DNA of 64,000 bases from Aestuariivita sp. (GTDB taxonomy: Bacteria > Pseudomonadota > Alphaproteobacteria > Rhodobacterales > Rhodobacteraceae): positions 3,499,004 through 3,563,003 of the forward strand of contig OZ244059.1 in NCBI GenBank assembly GCA_965215385.1. Reading direction: 5' to 3'. Position numbers and translations under genes: made by a program. Positions 30,136 to 59,448 of the stretch are shown piece by piece. A model generated the notes under the pieces. It had not been told where the DNA came from and searched no databases. It worked only from the letters and a program-made list of their open reading frames with translations. The first letter of the stretch is position 1; each line of letters begins with the position of its first letter.

Positions 30136-30581
30136 AGTGAAGTTCCAAATTCCAGAAAGAGTCTTAGAAATAGTCATGAAAAACCGGGGCGCACAAAAAA
30201 GTTCCCTAGTAGTATTCGTTGAGTTAAAAATATTCTTCAATGTCATTTTTCCTTTCTAGGCCTGTCGGACGTTCAAAAAAAAGTTTTGCTAGTCGTTAAA
30301 ATTATGTGAGGCCTATGTCAAGTGATTAGGGAGCCACGGGTGTGGTTCTCATATGGTGTCGGCCGAATTTTTGAAGCCGTTGATATGACTAGATAATTTT
30401 AGATCGGATTTCACGGCTCGCGCCGATTTCGCCGGCTTTCGCGAAACGTTACCCGGTCGCGCCAAATTTTTCCCGATTCGGCGGTTTTAGCCAAGACTAT
30501 TTGCTGTTGTGGCGGGTGTGGTAGCGTGCGCCAAAATTCACCCCAAACGTCTTTGATCAAAGACGAGAAAGGAGCACTCTG

Positions 30582-32100: not shown

Positions 32101-32655
32101 ATGGACGCAGACGATCACCCCGTAGAAAGGGTTTTGAAAGAAGCACGCCGCTTTATGGTGCCATTGTATCAGCGCAAATATCAGTGGAGTGACAGGCTCC
32201 TTGAGTCATTCTGGGAAGATGTATCAGCCAAGGCCGTTGAAATCCTCGACGGTGAAAGTAAATTCGAACACTATATGGGCGCACTCATCCTGTCCCCGGT
32301 CGAGGAAGGCTCTCAGATTGCACGTACCCCTCGTGTCTAAGTTGTCGACGGCCAACAGCGCTTGACCACTTTCCAAATTTTTCTAGCGGGCTTACGGGAA
32401 GTCGCGCGGGATCATCAACTTGATGACCTCATAAAGCATATCAACGGCTATCTGTTCAATGAGCAAAAGAGCAAAGATACAGACCCTCTGACACGTTTCA
32501 AACTAACACCAACACCGTCGGATCGGGATATTTTCCAGGACATTATCGAGATGTCCTACAAGGATGTAACCCGTAAGCGTCACGAGCTATTCTACGGTAA
32601 ACGCGTTCCCAAGAACACCCAGTTACGCACCTTCGGTGCTAACTACTTGAAATAA
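32101..32655 (+). pseudogene. DUF262 (GmrSD N-terminal, ParB-like) gene fragment with in-frame TAA
   Basis: ...VPLYQRKYQWS... then TAA at 32338..32340, followed in the same frame by VVDGQQRLTTFQIFLAGL... Only about 180 codons are present and there is no DUF1524/HNH part. It ends where the integrase module begins. Confidence 0.7.
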
Positions 32656-32740
32656 CTGCTTAGTTTTCTTCTCAAAAACTTGATTTCGGATGCGAACCGA
32701 TGTGGTTTCGTCCGAAATTGCAACCAGAAGAAGAAGAATT

Positions 32741-33847
32741 ATGTCAAAATTAACGGATACACGAGTGCACGCTTTGCGTGCCAAAAAGACAACACAGAAT
32801 ATTCGAGATACAGAACTAAAAGGCTTTGGTGTTCGCGTCCTGCCAAGCGGGAAGAAACGCTACTTTCTGCACAGCCAACATGATGGCCAGCGCATCTGGA
32901 GGATTATCGGCGACCCGGACAATATGACAGTTAGTGAAGCTCGACAACAAGCCATAAACTTGTTGATGACTTTGCAATCGGGAAAACCTGATACGGAGAC
33001 TGTATTCGATACAATAGCTGCCGAAACGTTTCGCCGCTATAGTCGACAGTGGAAGCCGAGTACGCTTGCGGTGAACCAAAAATATTTTCGTCGGAATATC
33101 CTGCCTTGTTTCGCAGGGCGGCGGGTTGCTGACATCACATCGCAAGATGTCCGGGATTGGTTCACATCACTGCATGCGACGCCAGTTTCGGCGGATCGCT
33201 CAATGCCTGTGCTGTCGATTATTATGAAGGAAGCGGAGGCAGATGGTTTACGCCCTGAAGGCTCCAATCCCTGCAGAGGTATCAAGTGCTATTGGAGACG
33301 GAATAGAGAGCGTTTTCTTTCGGCGACTGAATTGGCATATCTTGGCGTTGCATGACGCAGAGCAGGGCCTTCTTCAGCCGTTACGATTCTCTGGCTGTTG
33401 GCATTGACGGGATGTCGATCAAGCGAGATTCTGACTTTACGTTGGACAGACTATCGAGATGGGAATCTCTTTTTGCGTGACAGCAAGACCGGGCCACGTA
33501 TGGTATGGTTATCTAATTCAGCTCGAAAGCTCCTTGATGAACATCCAAGAATATCATTTTGGGTTTTTCCTGCTTTGAAAATCACTGATCCATTTACAAA
33601 GACAATGCTCTATTCTGTTTGGAAGCGCATTCGAGCTGATGCCGATCTAAAAGATGTTCGCATTCACGATCTGCGTCATTCCTACGCAAGTATGGCGATC
33701 TCAAGTGGTGAGACGATCCTTACCGTCGGGAAACTTCTGGGACACAATAATCCGGAGACAACTCTCAAATACGCCCATCATGCGGAAACCGATGTGGAAC
33801 AAGCGGCCACTGCGATGGATGCTGTTCTTGGGAAAACACAGACATGA
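32741..33847 (+). pseudogene. Tyrosine recombinase (P4-type integrase with DUF4102-like arm domain), in-frame TGA
   Basis: MSKLTDTRVHALRAKKTTQNIRDTELKGFGVRVLPSGKKRYF... is the arm-binding domain. TGA at 33353..33355 interrupts the gene. The same frame then continues ...LALTGCRSSEIL..., HDLRHSYAS... and LGHNNPETTLKYAH. Confidence 0.8.
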
Positions 33848-34965
33848 GCGGAGTGCGGTTGACGAAATCTCGTGTCGAACGCCTTAAACCAGTGACACGG
33901 GAATATTCAGTTTCAGATACAGTGGTATCTTCCTTAAGTGTGCGTGTCTATCCTTCAGGAACAAAGACATGGGTATGCACTATAAAAGGGCGCAAAATGT
34001 CACTTGGCAAGAGTCTTGTAATGTCGCTTGAAGACGCCCGGCGTGCTTGTCTTCAATGTCAAATAGAAGACATTGTGCCGCGTCAAGATATCCCCCTTTA
34101 CCGGGAATTCGTTTTGAATATATGGCGCTCAACTTGGTCAACTCGCTGTAAATCAAGTACTGTTGAGAGACGAGATTCTGTTTTAACTCGGCAACTATTA
34201 CCGACTTTCGGATCATTATCATTAGATCGAATCACACGGAAGGCGATTGAAGATTGGTTTGACGGGTACAGTGTTTCTGCACCTGGTGGCGCCAATAAAG
34301 CGCTAGAAATCCTACGCCAAAGTTTGAACTATGCTGTAGAGCGTGATCTAATTTTGATCAATCCAGCAAGCTCTGTGCGTCCGAATCGTCGACCCAAGTT
34401 GAATAGGTTTTTATCTCAAGATGAGATCGGGCAATTGAACGCAGCGTTGGATCGATATGTCGACGGGAACAAAGGTATGCAAGCAGACGTTATTCGTCTT
34501 TTATTGCTCACGGGATGCCGCAAGATGGAAATTGTGGGATTGAAGCGCCGCGAAGTCGATGACCACCGACTTCGCCTTAAAGACAGTAAGACCGGTCCGA
34601 GAACAGTCTATCTTAGTCCCAAAGCACGAGCTATTATTGAAAGACATTTGACTGCACCGGGAGTGTATAGTGAGTATATGTTTCCATCACCGAAAAATCC
34701 TGAGCGACATCTTTATGAAAAACTGACCCTTTGGGATCGAATCCGACGAGAGATCGGGATTGAGGATGTGCGGTTACATGATTTGCGCCATTGTTATGCA
34801 AGCCAATGCGTGATGGCCGGTGTTCCACTCCCGGTCGTATCGCGATTGCTTGGGCACAGCCAATGTTCGATGACGCTGCGCTATGCTCATGTCTCTGACA
34901 AGGATGTCGCTAACGCAGCCGAGAGAATCGGTACACGAATGGAAGCGTTACTTAAAGGTGAGTGA
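33844..34965 (+). CDS. Tyrosine recombinase/integrase (intact)
   Basis: 373 aa, with ...LLLLTGCRKMEI..., HDLRHCYASQ... and LGHSQCSMTLRYAHV. Its start overlaps the stop of the upstream integrase (ATGA). Confidence 0.85.
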   Translation: MSGVRLTKSRVERLKPVTREYSVSDTVVSSLSVRVYPSGTKTWVCTIKGRKMSLGKSLVMSLEDARRACLQCQIEDIVPRQDIPLYREFVLNIWRSTWSTRCKSSTVERRDSVLTRQLLPTFGSLSLDRITRKAIEDWFDGYSVSAPGGANKALEILRQSLNYAVERDLILINPASSVRPNRRPKLNRFLSQDEIGQLNAALDRYVDGNKGMQADVIRLLLLTGCRKMEIVGLKRREVDDHRLRLKDSKTGPRTVYLSPKARAIIERHLTAPGVYSEYMFPSPKNPERHLYEKLTLWDRIRREIGIEDVRLHDLRHCYASQCVMAGVPLPVVSRLLGHSQCSMTLRYAHVSDKDVANAAERIGTRMEALLKGE

Positions 34966-35241
34966 AATTTGTCGGTGGTGGTTCAACTTCAAATACCGTT
35001 AGTGGAAAGCGACTTTTACTATTAACATGGATGCTAGTCAGAAGGTATTAACTGCGTGAAACATCGTTCGATTCCTTTCGACCATTTGAGAGAGCGACAT
35101 TATCGCGAAAGACACGTTCCATGACTGTTGAGATTAACGAAAAAATATTCATGCAGAATTGTGACGGTATATCTCGCATTGAATTGTTGGCGTTAACCTG
35201 CTATATATCCTGATTTTGAAAACTATATTCTGGGTTATTTC

Positions 35242-35405
35242 TAGGGGCTTATATACATTACTTGACGCAGGCCATTCCTCCCTACAATCGGGATTGATAT
35301 GGTCGATCAGCCCTTTAGTGGACCCAAGTTCTGCGTCTTTCGTCCTGATTGATGCTGTCTAGCGACACGATTTTATCCTTGTCAAGTAAGGTATATAAGC
35401 CCCTA
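35242..35405. promoter_or_regulatory. 25-bp inverted repeats flanking a 114-bp spacer, about 95 bp upstream of hsdM (candidate inverton or MITE)
   Basis: TAGGGGCTTATATACATTACTTGAC (35242..35266) matches the reverse complement of 35381..35405 at 24 of 25 positions. TTTC is present immediately outside both ends. Confidence 0.5.
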
Positions 35406-35500
35406 TTTCTAATACGTTTCACGAGATTCAAGGCATTTATTGGCACTGAAACTGTTGGGTCATACGCCGGTTTCCGAGAAGTTACAATAGAGTAGGAATA

Positions 35501-37828
35501 ATGGATCACGCTTCCCATAACACAATTGTCAGTTTCATCTGGTCGATCGCCGATGATTGTCTGCGGGATGTGTTTGTTCGCGGCAAATACCGCGATGTCA
35601 TTCTTCCAATGTTTGTTCTGCGGCGATTGGATTGCTTACTGGAACCGACAAAGCAGGCAGTCCGGGACGAAGTGCAATTCCAAACGGATGAGTTTGGTTT
35701 GACCGAACTGGATTCAGCAGGTCTGCAGCAAGCGTCGGGCTATGTATTTTACAACACATCCGAATGGACGCTGAAATCGCTGCTGGGCAATCCGTCGCAA
35801 TTAGAAGCCAATATGAATGCTTACCTGAACGGTTTCAGTGATAATGTGAAAGAGATCATCGACAATTTTGATCTCCGCACACAAATACGGAAAATGCTTG
35901 CAGCAGATGTTTTGTTTGACGTGATTGAAAAATATGTGTCCGAAGACATCAACCTCACGCCAGACGATAAACGCGCTTCCGATGGTAAAATCCAACCTGG
36001 GTTGAGTAATCTGGGCATGGGGTATGTCTTTGAGGAACTCATCCGTAAGTTTAATGAAGAGAACAACGAAGAGGCAGGTGAACACTTTACGCCGCGGGAT
36101 GTGATCAAGCTGATGACTCATCTTCTATTTGATCCCGTCAAGGATGATCTACCACCAGTGTTGACTGTTTATGACCCGGCTTGCGGATCCGGTGGTATGC
36201 TGACGGAGGCTCAGAATTTCATCACCGACCCCACCGGTGGAATTCAGTCTAAGGCTGATGTGTACATCTATGGCAAGGAAGTGAACCCAGAAACCTTCGC
36301 TATTTGTAAATCCGACATGATGATCAAGGACAACGATCCTGAGAACATCAAACTCGGCTCAACGCTTGCCACGAATGACTTCTCGAGCATGACGTTCGAT
36401 TTCATGCTGTCGAACCCACCCTACGGCAAATCATGGAAAACAGATCAGAAATACATCAAAGATGGCAAGGACGTACTTGATCCGCGCTTTCAGGTTAATC
36501 TCAAGAATTATGATGGCGAGATCGTGACCTGTGACGCGACACCGCGCTCATCGGATGGTCAACTTCTCTTCTTGATGGAGATGGCCGACAAGATGCGGAA
36601 ACTGGCCGACAACCCAAAGGGATCTCGGATTGCATCAGTTCACAATGGTTCGTCGCTCTTCACTGGCGATGCTGGCGGGGGTGAAAGTAACATCCGCCGA
36701 CATTTGATCGAAAAGGATATGGTTGAGGCGATCATCCAGCTTCCCAACAACTTGTTCTACAATACTGGCATCACTACCTACATTTGGGTTGTGACCAACA
36801 ACAAACCCGCGCACCGTAAGGGTAAGGTTCAATTGATTAATGCATCAGAAATGTATACCAAACGACGCAAGAACTTAGGCAATAAGAACTGCGACTTGAG
36901 TGATCAGTATATCGATACGATCACCAGCTTGTACATGTCATTTGTGAATGAAGATGTATCCAAGGTCTTCGAAAACACCGATTTTGGATACTACAAAGTC
37001 ACCGTATACCGCCCACTGCGGAAGAAAGCGCAATTTACGCCGGAGCGTGTTGCAACCCTACGCTTTACGACCAGTATGCAAGAGGCGATGAGCTGGGTTT
37101 ACAACAAGTATGGGGATGACGTTTATACGAACATCAATGATCATAAACAGGCCATTCAGGAGTATTTGGAGCGACAAGAAATCACCCTTTCGCCGAAGAA
37201 CCGCAAAGCATTGCTTGATCCCGAGACATGGCAGGCACAAAAGGACTTGATGGACGAAGCCGAACAACTGATGGCCTCTATCGGTCAGGACGTGTTCGAT
37301 GACTTCAACGCATTTAAGGCAAAGGTTGATGCTGACCTCACAGCTCGCAAGGTCAAACTTACTGCTTCCCAAAAAAACCAAATCCTGAATGCTGTGTCCT
37401 GGCGAGATGAAGGAGCTGCCAAAGTTGTCAAGAAGGTGCATAAGCTGACCGACTCCAAACTGAGTGAATTGATGACTAAGCTTGACGCCACCAAAGATGA
37501 ACTGCACGATCATGGATACTGGCTGACGGAAACTGCGGGTGAATATATCGAATACGAGGTGGATAAAGATCTGCGCGATAGTGAGAACGTGCCGCTTAAG
37601 GACAACATCCATGCTTATTTTCTACGAGAGGTGCGTCCGCATGTGAATGATGCCTGGCTCGATATCTCATCGGTCAAGATCGGTTATGAGGTCAGCTTTA
37701 ATCGCTATTTCTACCAGCACAAACCGCTGCATAGTCTGAACGAGGTTGCTCAGGAAATTCTGGATCTTGAGAAAGAAACCGAAGGTCTCTTGAAGCGGTT
37801 AGTCAGATTCACCGGTGAGCAGGCTTGA
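35501..37828 (+). CDS. hsdM: Type I restriction-modification system methyltransferase subunit (long form)
   Basis: HsdM N-terminal region (IWSIADDCLRDVF...), AdoMet motif DPACGSGGML and catalytic LSNPPYGKSW. 775 aa. Confidence 0.9.
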   Translation: MDHASHNTIVSFIWSIADDCLRDVFVRGKYRDVILPMFVLRRLDCLLEPTKQAVRDEVQFQTDEFGLTELDSAGLQQASGYVFYNTSEWTLKSLLGNPSQLEANMNAYLNGFSDNVKEIIDNFDLRTQIRKMLAADVLFDVIEKYVSEDINLTPDDKRASDGKIQPGLSNLGMGYVFEELIRKFNEENNEEAGEHFTPRDVIKLMTHLLFDPVKDDLPPVLTVYDPACGSGGMLTEAQNFITDPTGGIQSKADVYIYGKEVNPETFAICKSDMMIKDNDPENIKLGSTLATNDFSSMTFDFMLSNPPYGKSWKTDQKYIKDGKDVLDPRFQVNLKNYDGEIVTCDATPRSSDGQLLFLMEMADKMRKLADNPKGSRIASVHNGSSLFTGDAGGGESNIRRHLIEKDMVEAIIQLPNNLFYNTGITTYIWVVTNNKPAHRKGKVQLINASEMYTKRRKNLGNKNCDLSDQYIDTITSLYMSFVNEDVSKVFENTDFGYYKVTVYRPLRKKAQFTPERVATLRFTTSMQEAMSWVYNKYGDDVYTNINDHKQAIQEYLERQEITLSPKNRKALLDPETWQAQKDLMDEAEQLMASIGQDVFDDFNAFKAKVDADLTARKVKLTASQKNQILNAVSWRDEGAAKVVKKVHKLTDSKLSELMTKLDATKDELHDHGYWLTETAGEYIEYEVDKDLRDSENVPLKDNIHAYFLREVRPHVNDAWLDISSVKIGYEVSFNRYFYQHKPLHSLNEVAQEILDLEKETEGLLKRLVRFTGEQA

Positions 37829-37831
37829 TTG

Positions 37832-39664
37832 ATGCAAGATATCAAAGGTTATGACCGCTCGATCCAAGAATTGTTGTCCGGCGGCAGTTACGGCATCGAT
37901 TACTACCAGCGTGAATACAAATGGGGTCGTAAACAGCTTCAGGAACTCTTGGAAGATCTGACGGGGCGTTTTCTCGAGAGCTATCAGCCAGGCGATGCCG
38001 CAAGGGAGGTGGCTCACTACGGGCATTACTTCCTTGGATCGGTGGTTGTGAGTCAGAATGACGAAATGCGTCACATTGTAGATGGACAGCAAAGAATGAC
38101 TTCTTTGTCAATTCTGCTCATTTACTTGAACAATCTTCAGAAGGGACGTGATCAGCAAGTCTCAATCCAGTCGATGATTTATGCGGACGATTTTGGCGAG
38201 AAAAAGTTCAAAATGGATGTGCCTGAACGCAATGACTGCATGGAAGCATTGTTCAACGAAATGCCGGTAAACACCGATGATGTTTCAGAGTCTGTTCGTA
38301 ACTTGGTAGCCCGATATCAAGATCTTGGTGAATTGTTTCCCGAAGAACTCCAAGGCGATGCATTGCCGTTGTTCATTTATTGGATAATGCGCAAAGTGAA
38401 GTTGATTGAGATCATCGCCTACGCTGATGAGGATGCATACACCATTTTCGAAACGATGAATGATCGGGGGTTGTCGCTAACTCCAACCGACATGCTCAAA
38501 GGGTATCTGCTTGCCAATATTGATAACGCCGAGAAAAGGCTTGAAGCTGATAGGCTGATAAAGAAGTGGTTGGCGAGATTTGCGGAATTTGGCAAAGAAA
38601 CAGACGCAGATTTTTTCAAGGCATGGCTCAGGTCCCAATACGCACAAAAAATCAGAGAACGCAAAAAGGATGCCAAGCCGGAAGATTTTGATCTGATCGG
38701 AACCGAGTTCCACTGTTGGGTTCGCAATCACGCGAACTCATTGGGTTTACACGACAGCAGCGATTTTTATCGCTTTGTATTGCGTGATTTGCAGTTCTAT
38801 GCCGGGTACTATATTCGCCTGCTAAACGCGGCCACCAAAAGGACTGAAGAACTGGAGAGTGTCCGATATAACGCAGATGCAGGATTTACACTCCAGCATC
38901 ACGTTATGTTAGCTGCTGTCACTCCCGATGGCGACGAACAGACAGCCATTGCCAAGATGCGTGTTGTGTCTGATTTTCTTGATAACTGGCTTAATCTTCG
39001 GTTCTGGAACTCCAAATCCAACAGTTATTCAACGATGTCGTACGCTGTATTCCTCGTGATCCGTAGCATCAGAGGAAAGTCTCTGACCGAGATACGAACC
39101 ATCCTTCACGACCAGTTGATAAAAGAGATGGAAGAAATCGATTTTTCCGCTCCGGTCGGCCTGAACCAGTTTTTCGCCAAAGCTATCCACCGGCAGTTAG
39201 CTCGATTCACTGATTGGTTAGAGCAGCAATCTGGCGGGCCTGGACACTACGAGGAGTACATCGTTCGTTCCGGTAAGAACGCCTTTGAGATTGAGCATAT
39301 ATGGGCGGATCACTACGACCGGTTCAAGCACGAATTCGATCAGCAGAATAATTTTGATCAGTACCGCAATTTTATTGGAGGACTGCTGTTATTACCGAAG
39401 AAAATCAATGCCAGTCTCAACGATAGGACTTATGAGGAGAAACTTCCGCATTACCTGAAACAGAACGCTCTGGCCCAGTCGCTGCACAAAGATTTCTATA
39501 GCAACCATCCTGGTTTTCAGCAGACAATCACCAAGCACTCCCTGCTATTTCGTTCACACGACAGCTTCACCAAAGCCGATCTTGAGGAACGCTCACAATT
39601 GTATTGCCAATTGGCCGCTCTGATCTGGTCACCGGATCGTCTTCTGGATGGGGAAGAAGTGTAA
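37832..39664 (+). CDS. DUF262/DUF1524 (GmrSD-like) nuclease embedded in the Type I R-M operon
   Basis: N-terminal IDYYQREYKWG... and IVDGQQRMTSL mark DUF262. C-terminal FEIEHIWADHYD...GGLLLLPKKINASLND marks a DUF1524/His-Me type domain. The ATG lies 3 nt after the hsdM stop and its TAA overlaps the hsdS ATG. Confidence 0.8.
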   Translation: MQDIKGYDRSIQELLSGGSYGIDYYQREYKWGRKQLQELLEDLTGRFLESYQPGDAAREVAHYGHYFLGSVVVSQNDEMRHIVDGQQRMTSLSILLIYLNNLQKGRDQQVSIQSMIYADDFGEKKFKMDVPERNDCMEALFNEMPVNTDDVSESVRNLVARYQDLGELFPEELQGDALPLFIYWIMRKVKLIEIIAYADEDAYTIFETMNDRGLSLTPTDMLKGYLLANIDNAEKRLEADRLIKKWLARFAEFGKETDADFFKAWLRSQYAQKIRERKKDAKPEDFDLIGTEFHCWVRNHANSLGLHDSSDFYRFVLRDLQFYAGYYIRLLNAATKRTEELESVRYNADAGFTLQHHVMLAAVTPDGDEQTAIAKMRVVSDFLDNWLNLRFWNSKSNSYSTMSYAVFLVIRSIRGKSLTEIRTILHDQLIKEMEEIDFSAPVGLNQFFAKAIHRQLARFTDWLEQQSGGPGHYEEYIVRSGKNAFEIEHIWADHYDRFKHEFDQQNNFDQYRNFIGGLLLLPKKINASLNDRTYEEKLPHYLKQNALAQSLHKDFYSNHPGFQQTITKHSLLFRSHDSFTKADLEERSQLYCQLAALIWSPDRLLDGEEV

Positions 39665-40950
39665 TGTTGGGTAATCATGCAAAATACGATAGCTATAAGG
39701 ACTGCGGCATTGATTGGTTGGGGCTAATACCTTCTGAATGGCAACTCAAGAAATCAAAGTACATATAGCGAGAAATCGAAGATCGATCCGACGATGGTGA
39801 AGAACAGCTACTGTCTGTTTCACAATATGATGGCGTGGTACCAAATACCTCCGAGAGCCGCAGCGAAAGCCTTGAAGGATATAAGAAGGTATTTCCAAGT
39901 CACTTGGTGACCAACATTATGTTAGCTTGGATGGGTGGATTGGGTATATCAGAACATCATGGCATCGTGAGCCCGGCTTATGCGGTTTATGGGCTGATCG
40001 AAGACCACAATGCCAATTATCTTGGATATCTCTATCGAACAAAAGTCTATCTGGGGGAATTTGCCAGAAAGTCGACGGGTGTTGTGCCCTCCCGGTGGCG
40101 AATGTATTCGGATGACTTTGGTCAGGTTTCGACACTTCTTCCACCAAAAGAAACCCAGAACCGCATTGTGAAATTTCTTGACGCGAAAACTGCTGCGATT
40201 GATGAAGCGATTGCCAAGAAGCGGCGGTTGATCGAGCTGCTGAACGAGCAAAAGGCGATTCTGATCAACCGGGCCGTGACCAAAGGCCTCAACCCCGATG
40301 CCCCCATGAAAAGCAATGGAATAGGAGATCGATCCGACGACGGTGAAGCAAAAGCCAAACGGAGGGCTTGGTTTGGTGACTTGCCCGACGGTTGGAAGAG
40401 TCGAAAACTCAAGTATGTTGCGGAGTTGAGAAGTGAGAGAGAAATCGCTTTATACTCCAGCCTGAGGTATATCGGTTTGGAGAACATTCACTCTTGGAGC
40501 GGATCCCTAAGTCCATCCGAATCTGAACCTGAGGGGCTAGCATCTAAATTCTTTGTTGGAGATGTTCTCTTTGGGAAACTCCGGCCGAATTTGGCTAAAG
40601 TTTATGCTACGGAATTCGATGGACTGTGTTCAACCGATGTTTTGGTGCTTGAACCAAAGGCAATGAGTGCAAGGTATCTCTTGTATACTTTGATTTCGCG
40701 CCTGTTCATCGAGTTAGTATCCAGTTCTGTTTTCGGTGCTAAAATGCCACGTGCTAGTTGGGACTTCATTGGTAAGCAACTTGTGCCTCTTCCCGACCTC
40801 GCCACCCAGAACCGCATCGTACGCTTTCTCGACGCGAAATCCGCTGAGATTGATGAAGCGTTTGCCAAGGAGCACCGTTTGATTGACCTGTTGAGCGAAT
40901 TCAAGCAAACCCTGATCGCCAATGCGGTCACGGGGAAGATCAAGATTTAA
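39664..40950 (+). pseudogene. hsdS: Type I R-M specificity subunit interrupted by in-frame TAG (largest intact ORF 39835..40950)
   Basis: MLGNHAKYDSYKDCGIDWLGLIPSEWQLKKSKYI, then TAG at 39766..39768, then the same frame continues. Conserved HsdS helices appear twice (QNRIVKFLDAKTAAIDEAIAKKRRLIELLNEQKAILI and QNRIVRFLDAKSAEIDEAFAKEHRLIDLLSEFKQTLI). Confidence 0.8.
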
Positions 40951-40965
40951 CCTGAGGGTTTGGGC

Positions 40966-43923
40966 ATGGTCAGCGAGACAAGTGAGAAAGCCCTTGAGGA
41001 CTTAATCGAAGCGGCCTTTCTGGCGACGGGCTATGTCCAGGGCCGCAACACGGATTTTGACGCGGAATTGGCTCTGGACACCACACAGTTCTGGACCTTC
41101 CTGGAGGCCACACAGGCGGACGAACTCGACAAGCTGCGGCCCTATGGTGATTGGAAAGCTCGTATCCTGAACCGTCTCAACAACAAGATCAAGAAGGATG
41201 GTCTCCTCACCGTTCTGAAGAAAGGTCTGAGCATTGAGAATGTCCATCTCAAACTGCTTTACCGTTTGCACTACAACACTCTGAACCCCGAGGTAGAGCG
41301 GCTGTTTGAAGCCAATATCTTCTCGGTCACCCGGCAGGTGCATTTCTCCAACGTCACGCCGATGGACTCGGTCGATCTGGTGCTGTTCATCAACGGCCTA
41401 CCCGTTGTGACCATGGAACTCAAGCAGCCATGGAAAGGTCAGACCGTCCATCATGCTCGCATGCAGTACCAAAACCGCGATTACCGTGAACCGTTGTTCC
41501 AATTCGGTCGCTGTTTAGTGCATTTTGCGGTGGATACGCAAGAAGTATCCATGTCCACCAGGCTGGCTGGGACGAACACGTTCTTCCTACCGTTCAATAA
41601 AGGTGATGGTCATGGCAAGGGCAACCCGATCAATCCGGTGGGTCACAAGACCGCGTACCTGTGGGAAGACGTTCTGCAAAAACGGTCACTGACTAATATC
41701 ATTGAGCACTTCGCCAAGATCGTCACGGAAGAGGATAAGGAGACTGGTAAGAACGTCAAGACACTGTTCTTTCCCCGATATCATCAGTTGGATGTCGTGA
41801 GACAAGTGCTCAATGATGTTAAATCCAATGGTGTAGGATGTCGATATCTGATCCAGCACTCAGCAGGGTCGGGTAAATCGAATTCCATCACTTGGCTCGG
41901 GTATCAGTTGATCGAGACGTATAATGCGGAGGGCACCGCTAACATCTTTGATAGCGTGATTGTGGTCACGGATCGGCGGATTTTGGACAAGCAGTTGAAG
42001 GACAACATCCAAGCGTTCTCGGAGGTTAAGAATGTCGTCGCCCATGCCTACGATTCTGCCGAATTGAAGCGTACGCTGGAGAACGGTAAGAAGCTGATCA
42101 TTACCACGATCCAGAAATTCCCATGGATGCTGGAGGGCATCGCCGATCTCTCTGACCGGAAGTTCGCAGTGATCATCGACGAGGCCCATTCCTCCCAGTC
42201 CGGCAAGGCTGCCGACACGATGAACGAAACGATCAGCGGTGGTCGTGACGAGGAGGAGCCGGAAGACCTGCAAGACAAGATTTTGGCGGCGATGGATCGC
42301 CGGAAAATGGGACGCAACGCCTCGTTCTTTGCGTTTACTGCAACACCCAAGAATACCACGCTCGAACGCTTTGGACGGCAGACAACAGACGGTCGCTTCG
42401 TACCCTTTCATCTATATTCAATGAAGCAGGCGATTGAGGAAGGCTTCATTCTGGATGTGTTAAAGAATTATACCACAATCAGAAGCTACTACGAACTTCA
42501 GAAATCCATCGACGATAATCCGGAGTTCAATACCAAGAGGGCACAGAGCAAGCTACGGAGCCATGTCGAAGCCCATCCCGACACCATCAAGACTAAAGTT
42601 GGGATCATGCTCGACCACTTTCATGAACGTGTGGTGCGGCCCCAAAAACTGAAGGGCAAGGCGCGGGCCATGGTTGTCACACGAAACATCGAGTCGGCCA
42701 TTCAGTATTTTCTGGCCATCAGAGAGTCTCTGAAGGCCACAGGAAACCGGTACAAAGCGGTGGTCGCCTTTACTGGCACAAAGTCGGTTGATGGAGTAGA
42801 GTACACTGAGGACAGATTGAACGGGTTTTCAGGTAATGAGATCGCAAAAAAGTTCAAAGACGACGCGTACCGCATTCTGGTGGTGGCGAACAAGTTCCTG
42901 ATGGGCTTCGATGAGCCGATGCTCACCACAATGTATGTGGATAAAAAACTGCAAGGTGTGTTGGCGGTGCAGGCTCTGTCGCGACTGAACCGATCCAACC
43001 GGAAACTGGGTAAGGAAGAGACCTTCATCCTCGATTTCCACAATACGGTTGAGGATATCAAAGAGGCCTTCGATCCGTTTTACACATCAACTGCTCTGAG
43101 TCAGCCAACCGACGTCAATGTGTTGCATGATCTCAAGGATGATCTGGATGATACGGGCATTTATGAATGGGACGAAGTGGTTCAATTTAATCAACTCTTC
43201 TTAGATGGTGCTGAAGCGGATCAACTCTCACCGATCCTGGATATGGCTGCGAGTCGCTTCAACGAACAAGAAGATAGCGAGAAGATCGATACCAAGATCA
43301 AAGCCAAACAGTTTGTCAAAATCTACGCTCAGGTGGCCTGTATCATCCCGTTCGATAATGCGAATTGGGAAATGCTACATTGGTTCCTGAAGTTCCTGAT
43401 CCCTGAAATGAAGGTCAAGGACAACGACCAATCAAAAATTGATGGATTGCTGGAAAGTATCGACCTGACTACCTACGGCCTGGAGCGAGTAAAGATCAGT
43501 CATACAATTAGTCTGGACGACTCGGACAGCGCGATTGACCCAGCAAATCCAAATCTCCGGGGTGGTTATGATGATCCGGGAATAGACCCTTTGGACAAGA
43601 TCATTGCTGACTTCAACGAACGCTATTTCAAGGGGTGGGATGCAACTTTGGAAGAGAAGAAGATTAAGCTGATCAACATCCTGAATCATGCTAAGGAAAA
43701 CCAAGCGTTCCAAGAGAAAGTTATGTCAAACCCCGATGAACAAAACCGTCGTATCGCAAGCGGAAATCTGTTTGAAAAAGCCATGTACAAAGAGCGGAAA
43801 AGAGAATTAGATCTTTACAAAAAGTACATCTCAGATGACGACTTCAAGTTAGGTCTACATGAAGCCCTGTTTCGCGTGATGGAGCAGGATTTGAAATCGA
43901 ATTCCAGACCTGAAGCGAGATAG
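40966..43923 (+). CDS. hsdR: Type I restriction enzyme endonuclease/translocase subunit
   Basis: Nuclease-domain N-terminus, Walker A HSAGSGKSNS, DEAH box IIDEAHSSQSG and helicase C motifs (...VVANKFLMGFDEP...). About 985 aa. Confidence 0.9.
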   Translation: MVSETSEKALEDLIEAAFLATGYVQGRNTDFDAELALDTTQFWTFLEATQADELDKLRPYGDWKARILNRLNNKIKKDGLLTVLKKGLSIENVHLKLLYRLHYNTLNPEVERLFEANIFSVTRQVHFSNVTPMDSVDLVLFINGLPVVTMELKQPWKGQTVHHARMQYQNRDYREPLFQFGRCLVHFAVDTQEVSMSTRLAGTNTFFLPFNKGDGHGKGNPINPVGHKTAYLWEDVLQKRSLTNIIEHFAKIVTEEDKETGKNVKTLFFPRYHQLDVVRQVLNDVKSNGVGCRYLIQHSAGSGKSNSITWLGYQLIETYNAEGTANIFDSVIVVTDRRILDKQLKDNIQAFSEVKNVVAHAYDSAELKRTLENGKKLIITTIQKFPWMLEGIADLSDRKFAVIIDEAHSSQSGKAADTMNETISGGRDEEEPEDLQDKILAAMDRRKMGRNASFFAFTATPKNTTLERFGRQTTDGRFVPFHLYSMKQAIEEGFILDVLKNYTTIRSYYELQKSIDDNPEFNTKRAQSKLRSHVEAHPDTIKTKVGIMLDHFHERVVRPQKLKGKARAMVVTRNIESAIQYFLAIRESLKATGNRYKAVVAFTGTKSVDGVEYTEDRLNGFSGNEIAKKFKDDAYRILVVANKFLMGFDEPMLTTMYVDKKLQGVLAVQALSRLNRSNRKLGKEETFILDFHNTVEDIKEAFDPFYTSTALSQPTDVNVLHDLKDDLDDTGIYEWDEVVQFNQLFLDGAEADQLSPILDMAASRFNEQEDSEKIDTKIKAKQFVKIYAQVACIIPFDNANWEMLHWFLKFLIPEMKVKDNDQSKIDGLLESIDLTTYGLERVKISHTISLDDSDSAIDPANPNLRGGYDDPGIDPLDKIIADFNERYFKGWDATLEEKKIKLINILNHAKENQAFQEKVMSNPDEQNRRIASGNLFEKAMYKERKRELDLYKKYISDDDFKLGLHEALFRVMEQDLKSNSRPEAR

Positions 43924-44126
43924 CTTTTGGTTGCTTTAATTTGTGTCCGTTGTTGACTTTAACCAGCATAGTTCCCAGCAGTTTGATGTTTTGTCTTTCT
44001 AACATAAGCCCCAGCAACAAACTCATTGATATGTGCAATCCATCGGCTGCTTGTAAAGATAACAACCATGCTTGGAAAAAAAGAACTGTTACGTTCCGTC
44101 CCATCCTCCACCATAGGACTTAACTG

Positions 44127-47100
44127 ATGCTATCAGGTCCCCGTGCGTTGGTCAGCGCCGAACAGACATTCGGTTATTTTTTACATGAATATCTTGCGCG
44201 AAACGACAAAGCGCATCGTTCTGCTAACCGGTGGCATGGAAAAGGTGCAGAGACGTTGGGGCTCGGTCAACGCGTTGGCAAACGGAAGTTCATCGCTATT
44301 CTGTCAGGTCAAGTACCAGGAACTGACATCACATTAGGCCGAATTATTGATGGCGAGCGCCAACATCGTCCGGGTTGGGATTTGACGTTTTCCGCGCCAA
44401 AATCTGTTTCATTCGAAGCTCTTTATCAAGGACGGCGGGCGGTCATGCATGCTCATGATGCGGCCGTGCGAGCAACGCTTGATTGGATTGAGAACGAGTA
44501 TCTTCAAACGCGTGGGTATGATCCTGAAACAGGTCGTCGGCCGCGGGAAGCTGCACATGGAATGATTGCCGCGACCTTCCGCCATATGGCAAGCCGGAAC
44601 AATGATCCACAACTGCATACGCATGCGGTGATCGCAAACATGACTCGCAACAAAGACGGCGCTTGGCGGAGCGTTGAACCCACACTGTTGAAGCACCATC
44701 GACGCTTGTTCGGGGCGTGGTATCGGAACGATCTTGCACGACGACTGCGCGACTTAGGTTACGACCTGACGCCAACTGTTGTGGGTGGTTTACCGAGTTT
44801 TGAAATTGCGGGTTGGTCGCAGGACTTGTTACAAGCTTTCTCAACACGACAGCAGGATATTCTGGATCACATTGCTGACTGAGGTCGTGCCTATACAACC
44901 GCGAATGCTCAAGCCGCTGCACTTGCCACGCGGGGTGCAAAACAGGAACCGGTCAAGGGCGAGCTGCTCAAACTCTGGCACCAGCGGGCTGAGAGTCGTG
45001 GTCTTGTGCGAGAAGAACGCTGTGACTGGCAAAAAGAGTCCCAGACCAATGTTATCGTGATGACCTCTGCCACGGAAAAGCGATTGTCCCCCTTGAGGCG
45101 GTTTGGCAGGCGATGCAACATCTTGAAGAACGCCAAAGCCTCTTTCGACGGAGCGATCTGCTGGCTGCTGCATTGGGACGCGATCCAGGTCGCCATACCC
45201 ATGAGGAATTGGACGCCGCGATTGACCGTGTGCAGCAGGATGGCCATCTGGTCACGACCACAAAAGGCGATCTGACCACGCGCACCACCTTACGGGCGGA
45301 ACGCGATGTAATCACGGCCATGCAAACGGACCGCGCGGAACAACTGGCCACTGTCCATGATGTCATGATCGACCTAAACACCGCATCGCTCACAGCGGGT
45401 CAAAAGGATGCCGTGCGCACGATTCTGTGCTCCCACAACCGGATCGTTGGCGTGCAAGGGTTTGCGGGGACCGGCAAAACCCGCATGGTGAAGGAGGTTG
45501 TTCGCCTCGCCGGCGATCACCTCGTCATTGGATTGGCACCCTCGTCCGCCGCCGCCCGTGTTTTGAGCCTGGAAACAGGGATGGGCACCACCACGCTGCA
45601 ATGGTTACTGGCGCGTTATGGTTCCCTTGAAGACGGCCCCGAACTTGACGCGGCCCGTGAACAGTTCCAAGACGCCGTGATCATTGTTGATGAAGCCTCG
45701 ATGATGGGCACTGTTCAGATGCGCGATCTGCAACGCATTGCAAAGCGGCTGGGTGCCGCACGGCTGGCCCTTGTGGGGATCGATTGCAATTACGCTCTGT
45801 TGAGGCTGGACAACCTTTTCGGCTCTTACAAAAGGCCGGGATGGAGACGGCGTCTATGGATGATGTGCTCCGTCAACGCTCAATCAATCTCAAGACTGCC
45901 GTGACCCATATGATCGCGGGCGATGCTGACCTGACCGTTCACAGTCTTGGGGCTGACGTCAGGGAAGTGCCGCCAGACCGGTTAGCGGACACCGCCGCGC
46001 ACCTTTGGCTCGCTCTCCCACCGCAAGAACGTGCCCGAACGATGATCCTGGCACCTACCCATGCGCAACGGGAGGCGATCACCGCTGTGCTGCGCCTTCG
46101 ACTGGCGGAGGACGGCGTCATCACAGGTCGGGCTTTGCACATTGAGCGTCTTATTGATCGTCGTCTCACACGTATTCTCGCAGCAGATCCGTTAAGTTAT
46201 CAGCAAGGGGACATCGTGGTCGCCAACCGCGATGTCTATGGCTGTCAGAAAGGCGAGGCGTGGCGGGTGACTGCTCGTACATTAGAGTGGATCACATTGG
46301 AACGTCGAGGGGTCACAGGAGGGTTTAAGCCATCAGGGAATGCCGCGCACGCAATGTATCGGTATTCGAAACACAAGCAATCTCACTGCGCGCTGGCGAT
46401 GCGATTGTCTTCACCCGAAATCTCACGACACCCGTGGTGGTCAATGGCGAGAAAGGAACAATTGAGACGATTGACCCAAAACGCCTGTGCATTCGCCTGC
46501 AGGATGGTCGTCGATTGACTCCGCGCGTGGACGCGGATTGGCTCCGGCACATCAACCATGCCTGGACCTCCACCGTCCATCGTGCACAAGGTCGCACAAC
46601 AGATACAGTGATCGCTGTCCTGGATGTCGATAGCATGATGACTGACCGCGCATTACTGTATGTCGAGATGAGTCGCGCCCGTGATAGCTTTATTCTGTTG
46701 ACCGATGACCGAGAGCAGCTTGCCCACCGGTTGGAACAGGACACAGGCGTTTCTCATTCCGCTTTAGAGGCGACAGGACAATCGCTGGATGTCCGTCCTT
46801 TCCATCAACTGGGGGACAAGGAACCGTTGCGTCCTGTGCTCCAAGAGTGGCGAACTCTTGAAGGGATCGCTGAACATCAAGGAGTGACTCCTTTTCAACT
46901 GCCTGAAGCAAAACCGCTGCTTGCGCGCGTATACCGGCGCGTCACCTGCGAAGGCATCCATGCTCCTCCAGCGATCACGCATATTGTGACAGCGCATCAA
47001 ACATATCAAGCCACACGTCATCGCAAAGAAGTCCAAGCATTGGAACAAGCGTGGGCGTCTCTTCAGACGCAAGCCTCGACCAATGGACAGAGTATCGCGC

Positions 47101-47498
47101 AGGAACCAGGTGTCGGAGCGCTCTTAACCCGCAATGGGGAGATAGCGTCGGCCTCTTGTCCTTCTCTCGTGATCACCGGCGTGCAGGCGTGTCGCGATCG
47201 GTTGCAGACGCTGAGCGATCGACTTGAGCAATGTGGCAAGGTCATTCACCACGACAATCAGCAACGGATCAAGGCAAAAGACCGGATCACTTTCGATTGG
47301 ATTGAGCAAAGGATCAAGGCCACGACACGCCAGCGCGACATTGCTTTTCTGCCGGCAACACCCGAACTGGTGGCGCGTACACAGGCTTTTATCGCACGCT
47401 ACCCCGATACCTGGACACAGTGTGTCTCAAACGGACCGCGGACTGCGCCACTCTTCAACATCAGTGGACACGACTTGAGCAGGTGGCACAAACCTTGA
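44127..47498 (+). pseudogene. MobF/TrwC-TraA-type conjugative relaxase-helicase, multiply disrupted
   Basis: Relaxase motifs HRPGWDLTFSAPKSVS and ...FRHMASRNNDPQLHTHAVIANMT. In-frame TGA at 44880..44882. Frameshifts near 45075, 45790-45900 and 46430-46520. Helicase P-loop GFAGTGKT, then ...STVHRAQGRT... Confidence 0.8.
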
Positions 47499-48706: not shown

Positions 48707-48811
48707 ATTGCAACACGTCGATGTGGTGGTTTAGGATTTTTGGTTTACAGATATTGTATTGAGGTCAGGAGTTGGTATGAATCTCTGAATAGGTATATTA
48801 AGGAGATTCCG

Positions 48812-49768
48812 ATGCCAAACGGCTACCACCACCTGACCTACACGGATCGATGCCAAATATACGCCTTAAAGGCAAGCGGGTATTCGCAGCGTGCCATCGC
48901 CCGCGAAATGAACCGCAGTCCGGCGACGATTTCACGGGAACTTCGTCGTAATAGCGGTGAACGGGGGTACCGTCACAAGCAAGCTGAACATCAGGCGCGA
49001 GAGCGTCGTCGTGCGGCGTCGTCGCGGCCGTGGAAGCTGACGGCGGAGCTTTGGTCCTTGATTGAAGGACTCTTGGGTTTGGCCTGGAGTCCGGAACAGA
49101 TTGCTGGTCGTCTGCGTCGCGACGGGGTGGTTTCGGTGAGCGCCGAATGGATCTATCAGTATATTCGGGCGGATCGGCAGCGCGGCGGGGTGTTATGGCG
49201 ATCGTTACGCCGTCGGGGTAAGAAGCCAAATGTGACGGCGGGCCGGGACCGCGGGCGCGGCTGCATTCCGAACCGAGTGGACATCTCCGAGCGTCCGGCG
49301 TGCGTTGCGGCCAAGTCGCGTGTTGGCGACTGGGAGGTGGATACCGTGATTGGCAAAGGGCACCAAGGAGCACTGGTAACGCTCGTGGATCGGATGTCGA
49401 AACTCGTGTTAATCCAGAAGGTTAGTCGCAAAACGGCGGTGGCGGTGGGTGACGCCATTAGTGCCCGACTGGCACCCTATCCGGTGCACACCATTACCGC
49501 CGACAACGGCAAGGAATTTGCGCGTCATGAAACGATGGCTCGAACCTTATCGGCGTCGTTCTTCTTTGCTCGTCCCTATGCGTCTTGGGAACGCGGTTTG
49601 AACGAACATACGAACGGCTTGATCCGCGGGTATTTTCCGAAGGGCACCGATTTCCACGCGGTGACGGCGGCGGAGGTGCAGCGCGTGCAGGATGCTTTAA
49701 ATACGCGGCCACGCAAGGTCTTGGGGTATCGCACCCCGCAGGAGGTGATGGCCGCGGCCAGGGCCTAA
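48812..49768 (+). CDS. IS30-family transposase
   Basis: MPNGYHHLTYTDRCQIYALKASGYSQRAIAREMNRSPATISRELRRN (HTH), ...WEVDTVIGKGH..., ...ITADNGKEFA... and ...NEHTNGLIRGYFPKGTDF... (DDE). Start at the ATG inside ORF 48740..49768. Confidence 0.9.
   Translation: MPNGYHHLTYTDRCQIYALKASGYSQRAIAREMNRSPATISRELRRNSGERGYRHKQAEHQARERRRAASSRPWKLTAELWSLIEGLLGLAWSPEQIAGRLRRDGVVSVSAEWIYQYIRADRQRGGVLWRSLRRRGKKPNVTAGRDRGRGCIPNRVDISERPACVAAKSRVGDWEVDTVIGKGHQGALVTLVDRMSKLVLIQKVSRKTAVAVGDAISARLAPYPVHTITADNGKEFARHETMARTLSASFFFARPYASWERGLNEHTNGLIRGYFPKGTDFHAVTAAEVQRVQDALNTRPRKVLGYRTPQEVMAAARA

Positions 49769-57904: not shown

Positions 57905-59448
<1,544 letters not shown>

Follow-up and report, generated by a model that had tools for sequence, protein, structure and literature searches.

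Is a DUF262/DUF1524 nuclease whose gene is enclosed between hsdM and hsdS of a Type I restriction-modification (R-M) operon a component wired to the Type I methylase, or a self-sufficient defence protein that is carried and expressed with it? We address this question for a 64,000-nt stretch of DNA from Aestuariivita sp. (contig OZ244059.1; hereafter the window). The operon and the genes that flank it are as follows.

32690..34965, + strand: tyrosine integrases upstream of the cassette, one split (32690-33355, 33398-33847), followed by an intact one (33844-34965); Pfam Arm-DNA-bind_3, Phage_int_SAM_3, Phage_integrase
35501..37828, + strand: hsdM, Type I m6A DNA methyltransferase subunit, 775 aa, intact; TGA at 37826-37828
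37826..37834, + strand: hsdM/nuclease junction, reading TGA, TTG, ATG (37832), with a 3-nt gap
37832..39664, + strand: DUF262/DUF1524 (GmrSD-superfamily) nuclease gene, 610 aa, intact ORF; TAA at 39662-39664
39662..39666, + strand: nuclease/hsdS junction, TAATG, in which stop and start share 1 nt (ATG 39664-39666)
39664..39768, + strand: hsdS 5' fragment of 34 codons that encode the conserved HsdS N-terminus, then in-frame TAG 39766-39768
39769..40950, + strand: hsdS remainder, with the rest of TRD1, central conserved region, TRD2 and C-terminal conserved region; stop at 40948-40950
40966..43923, + strand: hsdR, Type I restriction/translocase subunit, 985 aa, intact; ATG at 40966
44127..47498, + strand: TrwC-type conjugative relaxase/helicase downstream of the cassette, in four ORFs; Pfam TrwC 1.8e-68, AAA_30 (two pieces), UvrD_C_2

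Gene content and junctions of the cassette

The order hsdM, nuclease, hsdS, hsdR runs along one strand, with gaps of 3, -1 and 15 nt between successive genes. Our check of the open reading frames and their translations confirmed the junctions, coordinates, motifs and domain calls that an earlier note on this DNA had given for all four genes, and LSNPPYGKSW, DGQQR, EIEHIWADHYD and IIDEAHSSQSG were each found in the translations. The HMM searches that the note had proposed matched the DUF262/DUF1524, N6_Mtase, Methylase_S and HsdR families, and PADLOC called MTase_I, Specificity_I and REase_I and placed the nuclease closest to HEC-06. HsdM is an N6-adenine methyltransferase with NPPY and HsdM_N (Pfam N6_Mtase 5.8e-59, HsdM_N 2.2e-24; PADLOC MTase_I PDLC03029 1.1e-265) and contains motifs I (DPACGSGG) and IV (NPPYG). 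HsdR combines an N-terminal nuclease (D...ELK motif) with an SF2 motor carrying DEAH (IIDEAHSSQ), shows HSDR_N, SWI2_SNF2, ResIII and T1R_D3-like domains in Pfam, matches TIGR00348 (hsdR, 1.3e-69) and is also called REase_I by PADLOC. Both genes are under purifying selection (dN/dS of 0.12-0.15 against the closest relatives for hsdM and 0.05-0.10 for hsdR).

No promoter- or terminator-like site was found at any junction in a consensus scan of positions 34900-44300, and the counts over this region were at or below shuffle expectation (promoter-like sites, 6 vs 12.1 in shuffles; terminator-like sites, 10 vs 9.8), although the promoter scan used a sigma-70-centred consensus and is weak evidence for an alphaproteobacterium. 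There is accordingly no sign of an internal promoter or terminator separating the nuclease gene from hsdM or hsdS, a possibility that the note had raised against its own reading. Its view that the nuclease gene sits between the two without space for a promoter of its own also stands, and this placement is conserved among related loci. With no promoter of its own, and joined to the genes on either side by adjacent or overlapping start and stop codons, the gene is presumably transcribed with the operon. It is probably translated through the coupling that normally links hsdM to hsdS, co-translation being the presumption that the codon overlap invites. Canonical hsdM-hsdS pairs are themselves translationally coupled (PMC3510504), and a gene inserted with both overlaps preserved merely takes its place in the existing coupling chain. 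The stoichiometric coupling to hsdM and hsdS that the note had read from the codon overlap is for this reason unsupported as a sign of partnership.

The same note had described an intact four-gene operon and had missed that hsdS is broken. The frame that opens at the coupled ATG (39664) runs for 34 codons before an in-frame TAG at 39766-39768 ('...KKSKYI*REIEDRS...'), a position at which HsdS homologues are intact and read through. The 34-codon 5' piece matches HsdS in phmmer searches, and the remainder is recognised by Pfam Methylase_S (2.4e-10) and by PADLOC Specificity_I (5.7e-72), the latter alignment beginning at model position 74 with the N-terminus absent. The longest intact hsdS ORF starts at GTG 39835 and encodes 371 aa without the N-terminus that is conserved in homologues; rescue of hsdS by reinitiation at this GTG is unlikely, as nothing resembling a Shine-Dalgarno sequence can be seen ahead of it and that N-terminus would be missing from the product. 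No second hsdS was found in the window, and an intact HsdS with two target-recognition domains is the one Type I component that is missing. The hsdS gene is a nonsense pseudogene, and the unit consists of three intact genes and one nonsense-disrupted gene. Type I methylase and restriction activities have therefore probably been lost, and the Type I part is probably inactive in this genome with the nuclease gene still intact. In the annotation of this genome hsdS should be marked as a pseudogene, and the island around the cassette as degraded. IS elements lie near the cassette, and stop-to-stop ORFs of at least 200 aa cover only about 60% of the window, in which no tRNA was found that could mark an island attachment site.

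The nuclease and its characterized relatives

The note's assignment of the nuclease to the GmrSD superfamily was upheld by Pfam, by its invariant residues and by its predicted fold. GmrSD_N (PF03235; 7.7e-31) covers residues 11-226 and GmrSD_C (PF07510; 2.3e-7, 31.2 bits vs a cutoff of 23) residues 481-591. In an 18-sequence alignment of nuclease homologues, Q26-R27, D84-G-Q-Q-R88 and F206...N210 of the DUF262/ParB-like N-domain are invariant, as are E486-x-E488-H489, N513, N526 and N545 of the DUF1524 His-Me finger. The AF2 model (pLDDT 82) places the beta-beta-alpha elements at 486-489, 518-521 and in a helix at 523-528, and predicts residues 233-466 to be entirely helical, forming a linker between the two domains. 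A Foldseek search of the PDB gave seven significant matches, all of them to SspE, DndI or BrxU. The best PADLOC family is HEC-06 (1e-36, near full length); the PADLOC 'Orf5' models also match, the Type IV model mREase_IV matches weakly (1.5e-10), and NCBIfam has no model for this protein. The nuclease is likewise under purifying selection (dN/dS about 0.10-0.12 vs relatives), a value that averages the whole divergence and cannot date any loss. Judged by sequence, it belongs to a tight family of its own, whose members are about 610 aa long and share 50-90% identity across phyla.

The earlier note had assumed that such proteins are usually stand-alone and that embedding goes beyond what is known. 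This premise is not supported, as published work already describes GmrSD-like genes inside Type I operons. Type I R-M domains are the most enriched neighbours of GmrSD homologues (Machnicka 2015; PMC4619093, Table 1), Type I R-M systems often enclose GmrSD-like genes (Payne et al. 2024; bioRxiv 10.1101/2024.01.29.577857), and both RloF and TgvAB are precedents. [quoted passage not shown] TgvAB differs, as far as its description allows comparison, in consisting of two proteins (TgvA with DUF262 only, TgvB with DUF262 and DUF1524) encoded between hsdS and hsdR, whereas the window nuclease is a single 610-aa protein encoded between hsdM and hsdS. The Type I loci of Campylobacter jejuni contain RloF and other 'R-linked ORFs' (Miller 2005, cited in PMC4619093 and PMC11411939). 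These secondary accounts depict RloF as a DUF262 protein embedded in an hsd locus that serves as a variable-cargo site; by position and domain description it differs in lying between hsdS and hsdR. HEC-06 is a single protein that defends when cloned alone, and mutation of QR or EH abolishes defence (bioRxiv 10.1101/2024.01.29.577857); its similarity to the window nuclease is only moderate, however, and its gene is embedded in Hma systems rather than in a Type I operon.

The domain architecture is also shared with Eco94GmrSD/GmrSD (Type IV) and with BrxU, which is encoded in BREX (PMC8565348) and follows the same logic of complementing a modification-based system. BrxU matches in fold (7p9k, E 2.2e-6), but is undetected by sequence profile at E <=0.01 and has a whole-chain TM-score of 0.28. 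The closest solved structure is DndI (9jfl; sequence E 3.3e-12, TM 0.58), and SspE matches in both sequence (6jiv, E 2.5e-5) and fold (7drr, E 3e-11). These two are phosphorothioate-sensing DUF262/DUF1524 nickases (PMC11662687, PMC9646914) that depend on a cognate modification module, whereas the window family often stands alone. Linkage to sspABCD or dndBCDE is not seen here: no dnd or ssp genes adjoin the nuclease or occur among the scanned ORFs of the window, and the solitary loci have no conserved neighbour. A BrxU-like gene is also reported in the same island as Mme2I of Marinomonas and, in the portion of that paper available to us, is not described as embedded in the operon.

Conservation of the arrangement and the hsdM/hsdS slot

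The note had made its case depend on the arrangement not being unique to this strain, and it is not. Among 80 loci retrieved via the nuclease, a sampling that is biased towards intact nuclease genes, 39 keep the order hsdM-nuclease-hsdS-(extra genes)-hsdR, with codons that mostly overlap on both sides of the nuclease gene. These embedded loci span Alpha-, Beta- and Gammaproteobacteria, Verrucomicrobiota, Cyanobacteria, Chloroflexota, Planctomycetota and other phyla; because order and overlapping junctions recur in so many independently retrieved loci across many phyla, the arrangement exceeds chance. The hsdM/nuclease gap is <=17 nt in 31 related loci, with overlapping codons (ATGA or 1 nt) in 23 of them, and the nuclease and hsdS overlap (TGATG, ATGA, GTGA) in about 32/37. 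Same-strand residence between host genes, together with the occurrence of embedded and non-embedded copies in different genomes, makes the gene embedded in the sense of Payne et al. (2024). The nearest relatives are MAGs of marine and sponge-associated Alphaproteobacteria. Identities to the window proteins co-vary for nuclease, HsdM and HsdR (Spearman 0.81, n=28), and HsdS of the relatives is only 23-39% identical to that of the window, vs 50-90% for the nuclease. Such co-variation and conserved overlaps would also be expected if the nuclease physically bound HsdM or HsdS. No plasmid matched the 8.4-kb region in a megablast search.

The flanks of 37 of the 80 loci contain no HsdM or HsdR; some of these lie on short contigs, and only 27 are unambiguously solitary. 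Solitary copies are close orthologues (up to 82% identity) that interleave with embedded ones in the nuclease tree, and clustering of their neighbours within 5 kb on either side revealed no conserved partner. Four solitary loci (L010, L025, L018 and L011) retain remnants of the 3' end of hsdM, of the 5' start of hsdS or of both, so the nuclease gene was kept there after the R-M genes had been lost. The nuclease ORF is also intact beside a broken hsdS or hsdM in the window and at three further loci (L002, L040 and L127). At L002 an IS separates hsdM from the nuclease gene and hsdS is fragmented; in another close relative (L003) it is the nuclease copy that is frameshifted. Elsewhere, relatives of the nuclease follow hsdS (Deinococcus), stand alone (Lacticaseibacillus, E. 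coli IncF plasmids) or adjoin an SNF2/DUF4391 cluster (Aeromonas). In principle, a solitary copy could still cooperate with hsd genes located elsewhere in the genome.

Sampling via HsdM, which yielded 64 loci at which the hsdM/hsdS junction could be evaluated, showed that hsdM leads straight into hsdS in 34 and across a small gap in 4 (38 together). The window-type nuclease occupies the junction in 5/64 and other cargo in 20/64, comprising YhcG/DUF1016 PDDEXK, other GmrSD_N proteins, Mrr_cat, an SF1 helicase and Schlafen AlbA_2; the remaining locus lacks hsdS. A Methylobacter plasmid carries hsdM-PDDEXK-hsdS-hsdR, and an E. coli plasmid carries hsdM-hsdS-DUF4268-hsdR. The hsdM/hsdS junction of this Type I lineage is a recurrent cargo slot that is rich in nucleases (YhcG/DUF1016 PDDEXK, GmrSD-like, Mrr-like). 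A phrase search of the literature for genes located between hsdM and hsdS yielded nothing beyond reference-list matches and unrelated statements.

Probable autonomy of the nuclease and competing explanations

Our data suggest that the protein is probably an autonomous GmrSD-superfamily nuclease that occupies a cargo slot, is expressed with the operon and provides a second defence layer on a horizontally acquired cassette. The cassette hsdM / GmrSD-like nuclease / hsdS / hsdR would have been acquired horizontally and would now reside on a decayed integrative or conjugative island, with the nuclease occupying the hsdM/hsdS cargo slot of one particular Type I lineage. The nuclease is predicted to be self-sufficient, with a ParB-like DUF262 NTPase/sensor domain (DGQQR), a helical linker and a DUF1524 His-Me-finger nuclease domain, and we infer that it would act independently of HsdM, HsdS and HsdR as that second layer. 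Its most likely target would be DNA that escapes Type I restriction, such as hypermodified phage DNA. This predicted target is an analogy only, and DndI and SspE, which are closer by sequence than BrxU, sense a self mark and do not attack modified DNA. The note had offered such a two-layer unit as one of its alternatives, and by analogy the idea fits both TgvAB in the Type I operon of Vibrio cholerae VPI-2 (PMC11411939) and the proposal of Payne et al. (bioRxiv 10.1101/2024.01.29.577857).

The reverse possibility, that the nuclease is wired to the Type I methylase either as an m6A-reading second arm or as a latent effector freed when HsdM/HsdS is inhibited, with the overlaps fixing the M:nuclease:S ratio of a complex, is very unlikely in our judgement. 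As a latent effector, in the manner of PrrC and RloC, the nuclease would be held in check by HsdM/HsdS, and perhaps HsdR, until a phage anti-restriction protein disabled the Type I enzyme. The tightly coupled position inside the operon with its conserved overlaps, the inheritance of the nuclease along with HsdM and HsdR, and the precedent of PrrC, an effector that also resides within a Type I locus (PMC12707154), speak for such control. PrrC, however, is found almost only in Type I loci (Payne 2024), whereas the window family is solitary in 37/80, nearly half of its loci, with solitary and embedded copies interleaved; and PrrC/EcoprrI and RloC have an unrelated fold (ABC-ATPase with anticodon nuclease), neither domain of which was found by Pfam in the nuclease, which has only GmrSD_N and GmrSD_C. 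A guarded toxin would moreover be unleashed or orphaned where the nuclease is intact and hsdS or hsdM is broken, unrelated cargo fills the same slot in sister operons, and TgvAB, HEC-06 and BrxU work without their host systems (PMC11411939; Payne 2024). The guard arrangement, the note's other alternative, is thus not supported in view of the close solitary orthologues, the intact nuclease beside broken hsdS or hsdM, and the exchangeable cargo, and we regard it as highly improbable. The m6A-reading version, in which DUF262 would read the HsdM/HsdS mark and release host DNA while the HNH domain nicked unmethylated incoming DNA, as in SspE and DndI, would make the nuclease a second restriction arm that uses the same methylase as the Type I enzyme. 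DndI and SspE are indeed its nearest solved relatives by sequence and fold and both have a cognate modification module (PMC11662687, PMC9646914), and the nuclease gene sits between two methylase genes and is inherited with them. Many orthologues nevertheless have no methylase nearby, and HsdS specificities vary freely (23-39%) beside a conserved nuclease (50-90%), which is a poor fit with a site-specific mark. Growth arrest has also been reported for SspE when its modification genes are absent (PMC12707154), and an intact nuclease beside a dead hsdS is a state that should then be counter-selected; we give this version very little credence.

A further explanation, which overlaps the autonomous second layer and is unlikely but deserves some weight, is that the whole cassette is a decaying relic in which the nuclease ORF merely persists, the unit having no current defence role. 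The nonsense codon in hsdS, the split integrase, the relaxase in four pieces, the nearby IS elements and the low coverage of the window by long ORFs all accord with decay, as does comparable damage in the closest relatives (the IS and fragmented hsdS of L002, the frameshifted nuclease of L003). On the other hand, hsdM, the nuclease gene and hsdR are full length with every invariant residue, and dN/dS is about 0.1 against relatives, albeit averaged over the whole divergence and without dating any loss.

The locus leaves current understanding unchanged, as the two-layer logic is published and partly demonstrated (TgvAB, BrxU), and it adds a well-conserved GmrSD-like family to the defence genes known from within Type I R-M operons. 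Cultured carriers in which the operon is intact include Ralstonia solanacearum (CP022787.1), Paraburkholderia denitrificans KACC 12733 (L027) and Acidovorax sp. Leaf78 (L032). The slot itself is useful for 'guilt-by-embedding' discovery and for the choice of experimental models.

The operon and the nonsense codon in hsdS

The presence of the nuclease gene in the Type I operon is a real and conserved feature; in this genome the operon is disrupted. Re-examination of the ORFs bore out the coordinates and junctions described in the earlier note:

35501-37828, + strand: hsdM, 775 aa, TGA at 37826-37828
37832 (ATG)-39664, + strand: nuclease ORF, 610 aa, TAA at 39662-39664
39664 (coupled ATG)-40950, + strand: hsdS frame
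40966 (ATG)-43923, + strand: hsdR

The nuclease TAA and the hsdS ATG have one A (39664) in common, and every motif quoted in that note was found in the translated proteins. The DUF262, DUF1524, N6_Mtase, Methylase_S and HsdR families were all matched in Pfam: HsdM to N6_Mtase (5.8e-59) and HsdM_N (2.2e-24), the nuclease to GmrSD_N/PF03235 (7.7e-31) and GmrSD_C/PF07510 (2.3e-7, which clears the Pfam cutoff), HsdS to Methylase_S, and HsdR to HSDR_N, SWI2_SNF2, ResIII and T1R_D3-like. PADLOC called MTase_I (1e-265), Specificity_I and REase_I on the operon, and for the nuclease ranked HEC-06 top (1e-36), ahead of 'Orf5', SspE and a weakly matching mREase_IV. A consensus scan, which was sigma-70-centred and may not suit an alphaproteobacterium, showed no surplus of sites resembling promoters or terminators, and the junctions had none. 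HsdM is unusually long, with a C-terminal extension of ~290 aa past the methyltransferase domain that is kept throughout the lineage.

The proposal of a four-gene operon holds for gene order and junctions but not for intactness. Read from the coupled ATG, hsdS runs for 34 residues to an in-frame TAG at 39766-39768, a position that is read through in HsdS homologues, which have a common N-terminus (M-L/Q-...-KY-D/E-SYKDSG-..-W-L/I-G-..-P-..-W). The longest intact hsdS ORF opens at GTG 39835 without the N-terminal part, its PADLOC alignment beginning only at model position 74, and no second hsdS was found within the window; hsdS is therefore a nonsense pseudogene. Methylation and restriction alike are generally known to require HsdS, a point repeated in PMC11411939, so the Type I part of the operon is most likely inactive in this genome. 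The damage is probably recent, since hsdM, the nuclease gene and hsdR are full length, with dN/dS of ~0.05-0.15 against their closest relatives.

Conservation of the cassette and cargo at the hsdM-hsdS junction

The nuclease family is large and tight (7761 matches, the top 120 all falling within ~605-620 aa and 58-100% identity), and the homologue alignment shows no variation at the DGQQR and His-Me-finger residues. Taking one genome per species gave 80 nuclease loci from many phyla, which were annotated by phmmer with the window proteins. The order hsdM-nuclease-hsdS-(X)-hsdR, in the same Type I lineage as the window, was found at 39 of these, so the arrangement is not unique to this strain and recurs across many phyla. 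At four loci the nuclease lies beside a different Type I system, directly upstream of hsdM (L050, L066, L069) or downstream of hsdR (L077), with an HsdM of another family only 26-31% identical to that of the window; the other 37 have no HsdM or HsdR inside the examined flanks. The hsdM/nuclease gap is at most 17 nt in 31 cassette loci, with overlapping codons in 23 of them, and the nuclease and hsdS overlap (ATGA, GTGA or TGATG) in ~32 of 37. Percentage identities to the window proteins rise and fall together for the nuclease, HsdM and HsdR (Spearman 0.81, n=28), while HsdS diverges freely, so the cassette moves as one unit. The nearest relative of the nuclease, 91% identical and from an Aestuariivita MAG (JAPORU010000135.1), has a frameshift after codon 26-27, between YYQRE and TNGV at about 3180-3190; the copy is a pseudogene unless the assembly is at fault.

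Sampling by HsdM only (80 metagenomic loci, HsdM 42-73% identical) left 64 evaluable junctions, in which hsdM leads directly to hsdS in 34, a small gap is present in 4, a window-type nuclease in 5 and other cargo in 20, with hsdS missing from one. The slot is not specific to the window-type nuclease: among the other cargo are YhcG/DUF1016 PDDEXK nucleases at 6 loci, further GmrSD_N families at 4 loci, one GmrSD_N+GmrSD_C+DUF5655 protein, Mrr_cat, an SF1 helicase, Schlafen AlbA_2 and a TPR protein. Annotated plasmids read hsdM-PDDEXK-hsdS-hsdR (Methylobacter), hsdM-hsdS-DUF4268-hsdR (E. coli) and hsdM-hsdS (Acetobacter). In one related Type I operon (L090, 3994-7515) the hsdM-hsdS slot is filled by a tandem array of three YhcG/DUF1016 PDDEXK nuclease paralogues. 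Extra embedded modules are frequent in nuclease-bearing cassettes, with AbiEi/AbiEii between hsdM and the nuclease at four loci (L051, L062, L070, L080), and DarT, a macro-domain protein, an AAA_21 ATPase, RhuM and a PLD-like protein in the hsdS-hsdR interval. AbiEi/AbiEii and DarT with a DarG-like macro-domain protein, the latter pair lying between hsdS and hsdR at L036 and L055, are known toxin-antitoxin or defence modules.

GmrSD-like genes inside Type I loci are already published. RloF is such a gene, embedded in a Type I locus of Campylobacter jejuni, and the most enriched neighbours of GmrSD homologues are Type I domains (PMC4619093). Payne et al. state that GmrSD-like proteins often lie within Hma and Type I R-M systems as embedded genes, and that 96.7% of embedded genes are oriented as the host system (bioRxiv 10.1101/2024.01.29.577857). 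TgvAB, located inside the VPI-2 Type I operon of Vibrio cholerae, protects against Tevenvirinae without need for HsdR nuclease activity (PMC11411939). RloF and TgvAB lie between hsdS and hsdR, whereas the present nuclease lies between hsdM and hsdS and, unlike TgvAB, forms a single-protein family. Specific to the present case are this family, its position, and the evidence that the junction acts as a general slot for cargo within one Type I lineage.

Probable autonomy of the nuclease

In the AF2 model of the nuclease (pLDDT 82), a long helical linker joins an N-terminal alpha/beta domain to a beta-beta-alpha nuclease region at the C-terminus, and the model's significant PDB fold matches are to SspE, DndI (9jfl, TM 0.58) and BrxU only. 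Sequence profiles detected DndI (3.3e-12) and SspE (2.5e-5) and gave no match to BrxU. The protein belongs securely in the GmrSD superfamily; it is not close to any enzyme of known substrate, so its putative action on hypermodified DNA is an analogy.

Four lines of evidence indicate that the nuclease is not tied to HsdM/HsdS. Solitary orthologues are common and share as much as 82% identity with the window nuclease (L011, a Poseidonocella isolate; L007, 79%), no conserved neighbour was found among the solitary loci, and solitary and embedded copies are mixed throughout a neighbour-joining tree. The last 28-41 codons of hsdM are left at solitary L010 and L025, and the first codons of hsdS at L010, L011, L018 and L025, scars from which it follows that the nuclease was retained after loss of the R-M genes. 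Its ORF is intact despite a broken hsdS or hsdM in the window, L002, L040 and L127 (the last from the HsdM-sampled set), and the slot is unspecific. More distant relatives follow hsdS in Deinococcus, stand alone in Lacticaseibacillus and on E. coli IncF plasmids, and neighbour an SNF2/DUF4391 cluster in Aeromonas. L002 (Candidatus Poriferihabitans MAG, OZ244855.1; 7545-8918, 10827-13551) encodes a nuclease 88% identical to that of the window, with a 451-aa opposite-strand ORF, by appearance a putative transposase, between hsdM and the nuclease, and hsdS in three fragments.

We consider it probable that the nuclease is autonomous, with an NTPase switch, and occupies a cargo slot as a second defence layer. 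It would be transcribed from the hsd promoter, translated through the stop/start coupling that is normal for hsdM-hsdS (PMC3510504), and add a layer independent of the first. The two-layer role in the earlier note is accordingly reasonable, but as an idea it has been described before (PMC11411939). The same solitary orthologues, scars, intact nucleases beside broken hsd genes and variable slot disfavour that note's other proposal, a PrrC-like guard in which HsdM/HsdS hold the nuclease latent, and make it improbable; they also make an SspE/DndI-like nuclease reading a self mark improbable. SspE, moreover, reportedly arrests growth without its modification module (PMC12707154), a behaviour that fits poorly with intact nucleases beside dead hsdS genes. 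That the cassette of this particular genome is simply a decaying relic is unlikely as the main explanation, but is compatible with an autonomous nuclease.

A probable decaying mobile island

The surroundings of the cassette contain the following:

25870-30246, - strand: very large 1458-aa ORF with repeated fibronectin type III domains
32101-32337: 79-aa ORF
32690-33355 and 33398-33847: tyrosine integrase 1, split, just upstream of the cassette
33844-34965: tyrosine integrase 2, intact, in tandem and overlapping the end of integrase 1
44127-47498: TrwC-type conjugative relaxase/helicase in four overlapping or adjacent pieces (TrwC, AAA_30, UvrD_C_2)
48740-49768: IS transposase, HTH_38 and rve integrase core
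58137-59123, - strand: IS transposase, IS110-type DEDD

The broken relaxase/helicase looks like a pseudogene from an integrative conjugative element. Stop-to-stop ORFs of at least 200 aa cover just ~60% of the window, and this low coding density, together with several split genes, suggests widespread pseudogenisation. With the split integrase, the four-piece relaxase, the IS transposases and a G+C content that drops from 0.55-0.60 in the flanks to 0.45-0.50 over 32-44 kb, these features fit a decaying mobile island. The 79-aa ORF has a marginal phmmer match to the nuclease (E ~1e-3, 12.6 bits); noise is the likelier reading, though the ORF may be a remnant. The product of the 1458-aa ORF is of a eukaryote-like repeat type frequent in host-associated bacteria.
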